Shown here one piece after another: positions 13,695 to 52,268 of a stretch of DNA of 64,000 nucleotides. Both the position numbers and the translations under genes were made by a program. The stretch is from Octopus vulgaris (lineage: Eukaryota). How positions within the stretch are numbered: position 1 is the stretch's first letter; the number at the start of each line of letters is the position of its first letter. The stretch is from assembly GCA_951406725.2 (NCBI GenBank), contig OX597815.1:138694001-138758000 (forward strand), in the 5' to 3' direction. Under the pieces are notes generated by a model. The model was not told the origin of the DNA. It saw nothing but the letters and a program-made list of their open reading frames with translations, and did not search any database.

Positions 13695-13766
<72 letters not shown>

Positions 13767-13881
13767 CGACGGGCTTCTTTCAGTTTCCGTCTACTAAATC
13801 CACTCACAATGCTTTGGTCGGCCCGAGAATACACTTGCCCAAGGTGCCAGATAATTAAGCTACTTACCACACAGCCACTCC
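13511..13881 (-). mobile_element. tRNA-derived SINE, family B (CORE-like), with internal (TA)n(TG)n
   Basis: Minus strand GGAGTGGCTGTGTGGTAAGTAGCTT...CACCTTGGGCAAGTG...GTAGACGGAAACTGAAAGAAGCCCGTCG; homologous to 42855-43175. Confidence 0.85.
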
Positions 13882-27421: not shown

Positions 27422-27433
27422 TATATGTGTGTG

Positions 27434-27583
27434 TGTGTGGTAAGTATCTTCCTTAAAAAGCGCATGGTTTCTGGTTCAGTCCCACTGCGTATCACCTTGG
27501 GTAGGTGTCTTCTACTATAGCCTCGGGTCCCGATCAAACCCTTGTGAGTGGATTTGGCAGACGGAAACAGAAAGAAGCCTGCC

Positions 27584-27586
<3 letters not shown>
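27434..27586 (+). mobile_element. Family B SINE 5' half
   Basis: tgtggtaag...ggttcagtcccactgcg...caccttggg...gacggaaacagaaagaagcc. Confidence 0.85.
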
Positions 27587-27622
<36 letters not shown>

Positions 27623-39238: not shown

Positions 39239-39264
39239 TATATATATATATATATATATATATC

Positions 39265-39429
39265 GGCGCAGGAGCGGGTGTGTGGTAAGAAGCTTGATTC
39301 TCAACCATATATTTCCGGGTTCAGTCCTTCTGCGTGCAACCTTGGTTAAGTTTCTTCTATTATAGCCTCGAATCGACCAAACCCTTGCGAGTGGGTTTGG
39401 TAGACGGAAACTGAAAGAAACTCGTCGTA
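39265..39429 (+). mobile_element. Family B SINE 5' half
   Basis: ggcgcaggagcgggtgtgtggtaagaagcttg...ccgggttcagtcc...gtagacggaaactgaaagaaactcgtcg. Confidence 0.88.
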
Positions 39430-39605
39430 TATGTATATATATATAACGTAAAGTATACTAGCCATTTCAATATGGCTAACCACTAAGGGTGGCTGTTACT
39501 GTAGCTTTTAGCCCCAAAAGATCATCATCTCCAGCTGGCTTTAGCCACACTTTCTGTGCCCTTATGGTATTTGCAAAGGGAGGTCATCCCTCTCTCGTAA
39601 ACCTA

Positions 39606-39666
39606 AGTGATACGCACGGACTGCAGTTTCAAGGTATTTGCCTCTTGTCAACGTACGGCAATCACC
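39606..39666 (-). ncRNA. Type I hammerhead ribozyme, U3-A8 variant (copy 1)
   Basis: GGUGAU UGC CGUACG UUGACAA GAGG CAAAUA CCUU GAAA C UGCA G UC CGUGCG U AUCACU: 6-bp stem I, internal loop and distal stem, stem II, palindromic ACUGCAGU stem III, GUC site. Confidence 0.82.
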
Positions 39667-39890
39667 GGTTTTTGATGAAGGGAGACCTGTTTGCAAATAT
39701 CTATTTAATGTTTTTCCCAGTAACTTCCGTCACTGATTTCGAAAAACTGTCTGCAAGCAATAATAAATCTCTGAACGAGATGTAAACAGTAACCGCTCGA
39801 CAACGTAAAGTATACTAGCCATCTCAATATGGCTAACCACTAAGGGTGGGTGTCACTGGAGCTTTTAGCCCCAGGAGATCATCGTCTCCA

Positions 39891-39948
39891 GATTGCCGTA
39901 CGTTGACAAGAGGCAAATACCTCGAAACTGTAGTCCGTGCGTATCACT
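39891..39948 (+). ncRNA. Type I hammerhead ribozyme, U3-A8 variant (copy 2)
   Basis: GAU UGC CGUACG UUGACAA GAGG CAAAUA CCUC GAAA C UGUA G UC CGUGCG U AUC; predicted cleavage after 39935. Confidence 0.82.
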
Positions 39949-40153
39949 TAGGTTTACGAGAGAGGGATGATCTCCCTTTGCAAATACCATAAGGGCACAG
40001 AAAGTGTGCCTAAAGCTAGCTGGAGACGATGATCTCCTGAGGCTAAAAGCTACAGTAACAGCCACCCTTAGTGGTTAGCCATATTGAGATGGCTAGTATA
40101 CTTTACCTTGTCGAGCGGTTACTGTTTACATCTCGTTCAGAGATTTATTATTG

Positions 40154-40226
<73 letters not shown>

Positions 40227-40879
40227 AAAATGAGGCAGTGAAATAGATATTGCTGTACTTTGAGAGCTTCGCTTTCTCAATAAAAGATACACTCACACAT
40301 ACATACATACATACACCCTGAGGTATTTCATATTAGTTCATTAACAGGCTTCTGAATAAATTGCTATTTTGTGAAAATCTTTCACCACACGACAGAAGAC
40401 TTTTTAGTATTTACCCGTTCTAGATAACGAACTATGGCTTAATATGAAAAACTGAAGCCTGCATTTTCATTATGATCTATGATCATTAAACGTCGGCAGG
40501 GGAAAGTAAAAATAGCTATATTGTCAATATGCTCAGAGTCAAAAAAATATAGCATCCTAAAAATCAAGTACAGATGTACTATTCAATTTGTCACATGTAC
40601 CGCAACACTGGGCAAGAAGTGAGCCATAGTTTTATTTGTAAATTCAAAATTCACGTTTCTGGTATCAGCTAAAGAAATTACAATAACCGTTTCCAGTCAC
40701 ATATGCAACTGCAATGCAATTACTAGCATTAATACCCGATCTTGTCCATTTCCTTAGAAAGGAAGTTTTAAATTGTGAAGTCTGCAGACGAGAGAGCAAA
40801 TGCATTTAGACATAAACGGTAATACATTTAGAAAATGCTATACATGATATAAATATTCCTTTAGACACTTAGATAAACA

Positions 40880-44594: not shown

Positions 44595-45880
44595 GTAATA
44601 ATGGACGAACAAGTAAATGTGTACACGAACCTAAGAACATTCTGCCCCATAGGTATACGGAAGGGCAAAAGCACAAAACCACAAACATTTAAGCGATTAA
44701 AAATTAAAATAAAATCACAAACTCCATGTCCCAACACAGTTTACTAAATATTACTTAATATGTATTATATTATCATAAAAGTTACATTGAATATATTAAT
44801 AAATTTATTAATTATACTAACCCTTACGTGGGTGCAGCCATACTGGTTCTACCACCAAATTACACTTTCAATCATACATGGTAAAAAAAAAGTGTACTAA
44901 TACACCTACAATATGAACATAAACACTTACCAAGAACTCATCCACCGAGAAATCCTAAGAAATATAAAGTAGTCCCAACAAGAACCCTTAAAACAATTAA
45001 CTTAGAGATCAAGAAAATCCTGTTGGAGTATAATATAGATGATAGGACGGAACCGTTTTCACCGATTAGAGCTAGTATAATAGTTAAGGACCATAAGGAC
45101 AATTACTTAGGTAATACACAGATCAAAATAATTTGCCCCAAGAAATCTGATTTGGGTAAGCTTATTCAGGCAATCCTAGATAAGTATATACCTACCCTGA
45201 AGAAAAAGATTAAACTCGAGTTATGGGCAAACACCCAAAGCGCAATAGGATGGTTCTCTAACATAAAACATAAGGATAAACATAATTTTTTGCAAAATTG
45301 TTACTCCTCCATAAACCCCACTACTCTAAATAGCGCGCTCATTTTTGCTAAGAACTTTACTAGGATCAGTAGAAAAGAAATCAACATAATTCTCACGGCC
45401 CGTAAGCCTATTATTGAACTTCATAATAAACTGTGGGCTAGGAAGGGCACCCCTGATTTCTTTGATATAACTATAGGATCCCCTCATTAAGCAGAGGTGA
45501 CTGGCTTTGTGGGAATATACCTATTAGACAACATCAACAAAGAATTTCCTGAATTTGGGTGGGGTGGGGGGCTCTACAGGGATGACACACCTTTTTTTAA
45601 ATTTTGAATAGACACCTCTAATAGACGCCTTGAACTACTTAAGAAATGTCTGTATAAATCCTTTAATAGATTCAGCCTCTCTAAAATGAAAACTAGTTTA
45701 TCAACTACCTGGACGTTAATTGTAATTTAAATACAGGTTTACATAAACCTTACATGAAACCTAACTCTAATTTAAAGTATATTAACTATCAAAGTAACCA
45801 CCCACAATCAGTAAAAAGAGCTCTAATAAGTGGCATTAGCAAAAGAATTTCCTATCTCACTTCTAATGAGGACCTATATA
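44595..45880 (+). mobile_element. Decayed PLE RT of a second lineage (YRDD type)
   Basis: SIIVKDHKDNY...ICPKKSDLGK...LWANTQSAIGWF...FDITIGS...GLYRDD...NYLDV...KPYMKPNSNLKYINYQSNHP. Confidence 0.8.
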
Positions 45881-50574: not shown

Positions 50575-52210
50575 AGGGAAAAGTAGGAAAAAAATAAGCG
50601 AAAATGCACATTGGAAATCAAAAGTAAAGTCTTTTTTATGAAAAGTAATGATAAATATATAAACAATTAGATGAACTGAGGTAGGAATAAAATTAATAAA
50701 AGTCATTACTGAGAATTATTAAAGAGATTTAAAAGCATACCCGTTTCGTGAATCATTGCTTTGAATGCACTTCGATTAATGAACGGTCTCAGGTCTACTA
50801 GTCCCTGAGTAAAAAGATTGTGTAAGGGAGGTAAGTAGTTCTGGATTTGGTGCAATTAGGGTTGATATAGATCTTTAATGTGAATGGTGTATGGGATGTA
50901 TGGGTGTTAGTGGAATTCATTGAAAGGTTAGTAGTGTTCTGTATTATGTTATGTGTTCATATTGAGTTGTGGAAGATATTTATTGATGAAAGTTGCCTCT
51001 TTATTCCAAAGTTTCTCCAAGTTTATGCATTAATGTTCCTCACTCTACCGACCTCAAACTGAGACCCATCATTGCTGGCCCTATTTGTGAAACCAACCGT
51101 TTGAGCAACTTCCTCGACATCTTACTCAAACCGTTTCTAACATATGTGAAAAGCTTCATCAGGGATGACTTACAGATGCTGAACCAATTCACGAAGACAG
51201 TAAATGAAGGAACACGGTTAGTATCATTCGATGTGGTGAATTTGTACGCCAATATCCCACACGACTATGGTATAGAAGCGATCACCTTATGGCTAGAAAA
51301 ATATCCAGAAGAGATCCCAGGACGCATTAACCACAGATTCATAATCGCAGCACTCAAATTCATCCAACTGAATATCTATTTCATGTTCGATACAGTTTAC
51401 CATCGACAAAAATGTGGAATTGCAATGGGAACCCAAGCTGCTCAAGTGATAGCGAACCTTGTAATGGGTTACTTAGAGCTTAAGTTATATCAATCATCAC
51501 TACAAAAATATGGCACCTCATTTCATTGCTATTTAAAGGAGAACTGGATGATGTATTTGGACGATTGTTTCATACTTTGGAAAGACAGCATGGACAAACT
51601 CCTCGATTTCAAAAGTAATATTTAACAATATTAATAGCAACATACAATTCATCATGGAGCACAGTAGTGAACAATTCCCTTTTCTTGACATCCTAATTAA
51701 AATAGTCAATAACCACATAGAAACAGATAACTTTTATAAACTCATAGATTCTAAACAATACCTATTTTTTAACTCATGCCACCACAAACACATAAAAATT
51801 AATATACCTTATAATCTAGCGAAAAGAACATGTACCATAGTTTCGGACACCTATACTCGTGTACGAAAACTCCTCGAACTCAGATCAATACTAATCAAAA
51901 GATATTACCCAATATCATTAATAAATGATGGCATTAAACGAGCTATGGAAATAGATATACGAACATTAATTGAAATCAACCGAAATACCAAACCAGACTT
52001 AAAAATATTCCCGTACATCCCCACTCATAACCCTAGAAACAACGAAGCCTTCAGCATTATCACCCAATATCATCCCATTCTCACAAGAGACAAAACAATG
52101 AACAAAATTTTTAGCTCACACAAAATTATCAAAAGCAAAATTCAATCTAAATCATTGAAAAAAATATTAACCAGTCCTTATGTTTACAAGGGGGAGACAA
52201 GCACCTCCTC
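50575..52210. mobile_element. Penelope-like element with inversion: 3' end on minus (50575-50992), RT on plus (50993-52210)
   Basis: Plus: LRPIIAGPICETNRLSNFLD, SFDVVNLYANIPH, CGIAMGT, WMMYLDDCFILW, FLDILI. Minus from ~50990: FINKYLPQLNMNT* (PLE C-terminus), then UTR into (TA)n. Confidence 0.88.
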
Positions 52211-52224
52211 CCAGCTAAGCTTGA

Positions 52225-52268
52225 AATCAGAGACTAGTTTCTGAGTCTTTGCTCGTCATCAGTATGGA
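52225..52268 (-). ncRNA. Decayed type I hammerhead ribozyme with canonical core
   Basis: UCCAUA CUGAUGA CGAG CAAAGA CUCA GAAA C UA G UC UCUGAU: intact core and palindromic ACUAGU stem III, but mismatches in stem I and the first pair of stem II. Confidence 0.6.

Follow-up and report, generated by a model that had tools for sequence, protein, structure and literature searches.

Results

Two hammerhead motifs face each other in one insertion

We analysed a stretch of 64,000 nucleotides of the Octopus vulgaris genome, hereafter the window (G000:C2:138694001-138758000), against an assembly of 2.8 Gb in 227 contigs. Two motifs with the predicted fold of a type I hammerhead ribozyme lie on opposite strands of a single insertion, one at 39891..39948 on the plus strand and the other at 39663-39606 on the minus strand. 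In the plus copy, stem I pairs CGUACG (39897-39902) with CGUGCG (39936-39941), and the core is followed by stem II (GAGG-CAAAUA-CCUC), GAAA, C-UGUA-G and GUC; U3 falls at 39903, A8 at 39908, the G10.1-C11.1 pair at 39910/39923 and C17 at 39935. The minus copy has U3 at 39651, A8 at 39646, a G10.1·U11.1 wobble (39631) in place of the G-C pair, and C17 at 39619. A preliminary description of this locus had reported the core UUGACAA (U3, A8), a 6-bp stem I, a UGC/U internal loop, loop 2 CAAAUA, GAAA and GUC in both copies, with cleavage expected after C39935, and the sequence bears out each of these motif elements.

By these features, the motif is predicted to adopt the canonical animal type I hammerhead fold with U3-A8 in place of C3-G8. 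Helix I has 6 bp, helix II has 4 bp, helix III is short with a palindromic loop, and the loop 1/loop 2 tertiary motif is present in sequence (CAAAUA loop 2 with a UGC or UAC/U internal loop). The core departs from CUGANGA, reading UUGACAA, with G5, A6, A9, GAAA and GUC retained. In addition, each local copy carries one further flaw. For the minus copy, this is the G10.1·U11.1 wobble; for the plus copy, it is stem III, ACUGUAGU, a palindrome made imperfect by one change, with a predicted self-duplex of -4.2 kcal/mol, versus -11.1 kcal/mol for the palindrome ACUGCAGU of the minus copy.

Within the window, an 18-nt pattern of the core, allowing 3 mismatches at most, matches only at these two copies, compared to a mean of 0.06 in 100 shuffles. 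Folded in isolation, the motifs have unremarkable z-scores (-0.04 to -1.43), so that the case for a hammerhead comes from the motif and its covariation and draws no support from folding stability. Rfam reported no hammerhead in the window at the gathering score, or in 39300-40300 at E<=10. A sister copy whose core reads CUGACGA goes undetected as well, and U3-A8 is therefore not the cause of the miss; another family reaches 15 bits on HH9.

The insertion spans 39445-40155 and is flanked by TA runs. Its minus-strand part (39445..39891) is a 5'-truncated partial tandem of about 1.25 copies of a 357-nt unit, as judged from the direct repeat at 357-nt spacing, self-alignment and the position of its end, and its 3' end lies 174 nt past the predicted cleavage site. 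This tandem is joined head to head, at about 39891, with an inverted, 5'-truncated copy of the unit on the plus strand (39891..40155), recognised from the inverted repeats and carrying a tail of about 46 nt (40110-40155) that fits the bimodal 3' ends of the family described below. The TA-rich run at the left end (39428..39444) and the (TA)n microsatellite at the right end (40156..40195) are the likely targets. The left run adjoins a high-copy short repeat at 39264-39432, and the insertion thus sits at the TA-rich end of that repeat. The short repeat itself ends in a TA run, has further copies in the window at 27433-27589 and 13762-13820 and shows a very high summed contig depth; presumably it is a tRNA-derived SINE.

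As the preliminary description had stated, the two hammerheads come from one insertion and are not independent evidence; 11 of their 219 shared bases differ. The inverted copies are predicted to form a 219-bp duplex in read-through RNA, in which enforcing a hammerhead would cost about +79 kcal/mol. Because the two local copies face each other and would pair, they are likely to be silent passengers.

The motifs belong to a family of small non-coding repeats

The unit is non-coding, 353-360 nt long, and carries one type I hammerhead fold. A 31-nt anchor located 39 nt past the cleavage site has 451 exact matches in the genome. For a closer view of the insertions, we took the first 100 matches listed (contigs C1-C4) and left out the two of the window and nine of one array, which gave 89 segments. 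Their 3' ends are bimodal: 49 segments end between +160 and +179, and 33 between +210 and +229. A TA repeat lies within 6 nt of the 3' end in 32 of the 89, and the flanks are 82% A+T. The 5' ends are evenly spread: 73 of the 89 segments continue past the cleavage site on its upstream side, with no start between -3 and +10. A genomic test for cleavage, which would show as an accumulation of 5' ends at the GUC site, was thus negative in this sample. Upstream read-across without site-specific 5' ends is what a circular or multimeric template would give; the missing ends suit uncleaved RNA equally well.

Both orientations occur at 46 of 83 sampled loci, and a segment exceeds one unit at 24 of 83. 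Tandem units with a hammerhead number ten in the array L140 (G000:C4:13620760-13624380; spacing 355 or 357 nt), three each in L158 and L050, and two in L102, compared to 1.25 units in the window. L140 is a candidate source locus; one of its units has a 6-nt loop 2 and most of the others a 7-nt loop (CAAAUUA). Collectively, the insertions show 5' truncation and partial tandems, with inverted 5' copies, a tail at one end and microsatellites as targets, and these are the marks of Penelope-like insertions (PMC8557442); the tail described there measures 30-40 nt, versus about 46 nt here. G+C content is 0.43-0.44 in subfamilies A-C (defined below) and 50% in D units, and a unit folded as a circle is predicted to have 62-67% of its bases paired.

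Among the loci examined, no open reading frame is tied to the unit. Four sequencing runs, from a set in which none is recorded as RNA, yielded short contigs of many family members, which carry no information on starts, ends or circles. In these runs, the last ~90 nt of the unit (window 39810-39843 and repeats) has a summed contig depth far above that of the hammerhead part, and short pieces of it also occur alone (L058), pointing to many very short 3' copies; this stretch is perhaps what the reverse transcriptase recognises. At L183 (G000:C7:101718474), contigs of two runs, which we guess to be RNA, connect a single-copy flank with the 3' part of the unit. This loose end was considered as a partner element and rejected, as it maps to one single-copy place. 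The exact core pattern had no match in the metagenome and viral contigs searched.

Four states of the 3/8 pair mark amplified subfamilies

A pattern written for subfamily A, which fixes G10.1 and leaves positions 3, 7 and 8 free, gave 95 matches, by our count 82 U3-A8, 10 U3·G8, no C3-G8 and one each of U3-U8, C3·A8 and G3·A8. Among 71 hammerhead-bearing segments of the anchor sample (the array counted once), C3-G8 accounts for 42, U3-A8 for 24 and other states for 5; since the anchor was written from subfamily A, this sample under-represents B and excludes D. The preliminary description had allowed for the pair being private to this locus in a C3-G8 family. Privacy is contradicted by the 82 of 95 matches with U3-A8, but the majority state in the anchor sample is indeed C3-G8 (42/71).

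Four subfamilies can be distinguished. Subfamily A has U3-A8 and the stem III palindrome ACUGCAGU. Subfamily B has U3·G8 in 19 of 20 matches, stem III ACUAUAGU and, in some copies, G10.1·U11.1. The commonest, subfamily C (357 exact matches), combines C3-G8 with a C10.1·A11.1 mismatch and, in 21 of 42, U4C; one of its copies, L101 (G000:C2:138680625), lies about 13 kb upstream of the window start. An origin of the CUGA of subfamily C by CpG decay was rejected, as none of the 139 aligned segments shows the mirror product CCAA. Subfamily D, with stem III ACCGGU, is 63-72% identical to the others, and its 37 exact matches divide into 25 with C3·A8 (D1) and 12 with C3-G8 (D2). Thus, all four Y3/R8 states (U3-A8, U3·G8, C3-G8 and C3·A8) mark amplified subfamilies. 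Every successful subfamily but one carries a different, presumably weakening change, be it U3-A8, U3·G8, C3·A8, U4C, C10.1·A11.1 or G10.1·U11.1, and searches requiring CUGANGA with G10.1-C11.1 would find only the 12 exact matches of D2 out of several hundred hammerheads.

The preliminary description had called U3-A8 compensatory. This term is weakened, because each state that differs by one change only (U3·G8 and C3·A8) marks an amplified subfamily of its own. The mean distance between pairs of rows is 0.060 in A (32 rows), 0.040 in B1 (5), 0.067 in B2 (7), 0.081 in C1 (13), 0.073 in C2 (8), 0.019 in D1 (21) and 0.008 in D2 (3); the D rows and many of the A rows are top search matches, which lowers the distances of both, and D1 is still tighter than A. 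The C3·A8 copies of D1 are therefore among the least diverged, and mismatched cores have spread at least as recently as paired ones.

In the trees, the hammerhead was left out and D served as root; the second tree used 39 chosen rows. Subfamily B falls outside a clade of A and C (100/99), within which A and C rows are intermixed. A single U3 clade was rejected (p-AU 9e-5), as was a clade of A alone (p-AU 0.002). Both rejections together call for reversion or for exchange of hammerheads between lineages, and the order of the changes is accordingly not fixed; mosaic copies are likely.

The fold is maintained across subfamilies

Across eight subfamily representatives, hand-chosen with one per subgroup, 97% of the cells in the predicted stems pair, a value reached by none of 500 shuffles and compared to 22-51% in slid controls, all of which take no account of relatedness. 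Two-sided changes occur in stem I, the distal stem, the palindrome and the 3/8 pair, the last being CG in three rows, UA in two, UG in two and mismatched in one. The stem III palindrome is spelled in the three ways given above for A, B and D. In the same eight rows, G5, A6, A9, G12, A13, A14, A15.1, C15.2, G16.2, U16.1 and C17 are invariant, and changes in master lineages are thus confined to positions 3, 4, 7, 8, 10.1 and 11.1. In four whole units, 10 of 11 catalytic positions are invariant versus 163 of 309 columns (53%) outside the hammerhead (binomial p 0.01), and the lone variable position is private to one copy.

Predicted folding favours dimers in tandem units of subfamily A

Forming the hammerhead in an isolated monomer is predicted to cost 3.6-4.6 kcal/mol over the minimum in A and B, and 11.6 kcal/mol in D1. 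When two adjacent units of the A array are folded together without constraint, the predicted minimum is the dimeric hammerhead (-140.5 kcal/mol versus -123.4 kcal/mol for two monomer folds), with pairing probabilities of 0.81-1.0 for the palindrome. In B and C tandems, the palindromes are predicted to pair, with one or both arms folding imperfectly. No such pairing is predicted for D1, which would misfold even in tandem. Given that any tandem palindrome tends to pair, the dimer fold indicates compatibility rather than function. The statement of the preliminary description that a short palindromic stem III favours dimeric cleavage is consistent with predictions for tandem units and does not extend to the local copies, which lie on opposite strands and hence cannot form a dimer in cis. 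Dimer dependence of hammerheads of this kind is established (PMC4209133; reviewed in PMC6765202).

A candidate partner and other elements

A young and abundant element with an intact 778-aa open reading frame and a tandem/inverted build gave 150 scored matches at 97-100%, of 15,085 candidates. Copies include L221:3371-5704 (-), L222:4170-6503 (+) and L223:3787-6120 (+), with short terminal repeats and inverted 5' copies. It is likely an autonomous Penelope-like element; as the reading frame has no Pfam match and no PDB sequence match, this label rests on the tandem/inverted build and on two motifs, YRDD plus, at the C-terminus, a GIY-YIG-like stretch. The hammerhead pattern finds no clear hammerhead in it. 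As partner of the unit, it was rejected for want of any shared sequence, in a comparison that covered this one candidate family. A reverse transcriptase and GIY-YIG endonuclease reading frame was found neither in the unit nor attached to it at the loci examined.

Within the window, a fragment at 44885-45873 (+) is 44% identical to the 778-aa reading frame, a broken reverse transcriptase gene lies in two frames at 50990-52241 (+; RVT_1, E 1e-5), presumably of Penelope type, and broken LINE-type reverse transcriptase fragments occupy 714-2057 (+; RVT_1, E 1e-27). Elsewhere in the genome, canonical CUGANGA hammerheads gave 213 matches versus 7 for a reversed control pattern (e.g., L056, L059, L189 and L190:4335 and 4695), and one of these families, with 360-nt tandem spacing and inverted pairs, is likely another retrozyme.

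Discussion

Collectively, the unit family is a small, multi-copy, non-coding repeat and likely a retrozyme mobilised by a Penelope-type element. What we observe is the motif, the unit with its copy numbers, the build of the insertions, the covariation and all four states of the 3/8 pair; taken together, they are, in our judgement, probably best explained by a non-autonomous, Penelope-dependent retrozyme that would propagate by dimeric cleavage, circle formation and back-copying into TA-rich DNA, where cleavage, the circles and the enzyme are what we infer. Transcription through tandem copies would yield RNA that is predicted to fold as a dimeric hammerhead and likely cleaves, slowly, after GUC. 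The cleaved RNA would likely be ligated into circles, and a Penelope-like reverse transcriptase with its endonuclease would likely copy the RNA back into TA-rich DNA, priming near +170 at TA-rich nicks, with the circular template giving rise to copies of more than unit length. U3-A8 would be the core state of subfamily A only. As a part of this explanation, which is favoured as a whole, the family appears to tolerate weakening of the core but to retain the catalytic bases, and the ribozyme itself is on balance expected to be weak and dimer-dependent. A further step, which we put forward tentatively, is that one lineage may have walked the whole square of C3-G8, U3·G8, U3-A8 and C3·A8, with selection keeping the ribozyme throttled and losses confined to neither the catalytic bases nor the dimer palindrome, both of which persist throughout, such that multimers are cut and circles survive for reverse transcription.

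A different reading, possible but in our estimate rather doubtful, is that the hammerhead is a relic: cleavage would be dispensable, copies would arise from uncleaved read-through RNA, and U3-A8 would be the neutral sum of two transitions, one of them at C7pG8. The amplification of C3·A8, U3·G8 and U4C/C10.1·A11.1 cores would then be expected, as would the youth of D1, which is predicted to misfold, and the finding that none of the 89 segments begins at the cleavage site; Penelope hammerheads are, moreover, described as poor cleavers (PMC4209133). However, eleven positions of the catalytic boxes are invariant across subfamilies that are only 63-85% identical, and changes in stem I, stem II and the palindrome of stem III are compensated. 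If decay were free, one would expect G5, G12, A13 or A14 to be hit in some master lineage.

It is considerably less probable that the unit is the pLTR of a coding Penelope-like element that escaped our search and of which truncated copies remain. The insertion architecture is the same as that of Penelope-like elements (PMC8557442), and retrozymes and pLTRs are related in Xenopus, according to a preprint (bioRxiv 10.64898/2026.07.22.740005). Nevertheless, copies that extend upstream lead into a further unit, with as many as ten units following one another; no examined locus links the unit to a reading frame; the Penelope-type reading frame fragments near three loci come from insertions of their own; and of 30 loci with the 778-aa element, 29 have no similarity to the unit, the exception being the source locus of the query. 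Least probable is the view of the preliminary description, a fully active Sm-alpha-like hammerhead with U3-A8 as a selected compensation, working at this locus. In its favour, no stem or tertiary-loop motif is missing, PMC3088659 describes U3-A8 ribozymes as active in vitro with reference to earlier work, and the U3·G8 lineages lie outside the clade holding U3-A8, as a wobble path would give. Against it, the predicted minimum lies 3.6-4.3 kcal/mol below the monomer fold, pairing of the inverted copies would mask the ribozyme, each local copy has a further defect and mismatched cores have spread too.

The U3-A8 pair is not in itself new. Perreault et al. 2011 (PMC3088659) describe this covariation in several natural hammerheads, and about 1,300 Penelope-associated motifs with U3-A8 are reported from Schistosoma mansoni (PMC4209133). 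Activity is less than certain, since the C3G/G8C swap was the only one to be rescued when pairs of mutations were scanned in a type III hammerhead (PMC9901934), and the supplement of that study holds no values for the U-A double mutant. What is new is that sister subfamilies cover all four Y3/R8 states. We found no U3·G8 or C3·A8 families among the variants described by Perreault et al. 2011, nor any paper on amplified families of either state or on octopus hammerheads, in a literature that was mostly open access; the variants of Lunse et al. 2017 may overlap.

Animal non-LTR retrozymes are described as non-coding units of 170-400 nt with one type I hammerhead, those of mussels measuring 350-390 bp (PMC7229834), and the preprint cited above derives mollusc retrozymes from Penelope terminal repeats. 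Unit size, the single type I hammerhead, tandems, the predicted pairing of 62-67% of bases in a circular fold and, in A-C, a G+C content below 45% are shared with them. Unlike in those retrozymes, which are expressed as linear and circular monomers, copies are here mostly dispersed, truncated and often inverted instead of arrayed, D units have 50% G+C, the cores of most subfamilies depart from CUGANGA, and cleavage and circles are predictions. With the hammerheads of S. mansoni Cercyon pLTRs, as described in PMC4209133, the family shares U3-A8, a weak palindromic stem III and the Penelope-type insertion architecture; those motifs, however, are minimal, with a long helix II and a short helix I, and lie beside a reading frame, whereas the octopus unit has a 6-bp helix I, a 4-bp helix II, tertiary loops and no reading frame. 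The preliminary description had identified CAAAUA as loop 2 of the Schistosoma Sm-alpha hammerhead, and PMC2632901 confirms this; the stem I internal loop is also alike, and many family copies read UAC there, the sequence given for Schistosoma in that paper. The core differs from Sm-alpha, and the shared loops are general to canonical animal type I hammerheads.

Finally, the family offers natural, copy-counted and roughly datable versions of the four 3/8 states on a nearly identical scaffold. Either selection maintains a ribozyme of low activity, or the family is shedding its need for cleavage. Comparing cleavage with spread across the subfamilies would test whether Penelope-type retroelements need efficient, weak or no self-cleavage, a question that has stood since the low in vitro activity of Penelope hammerheads was reported.
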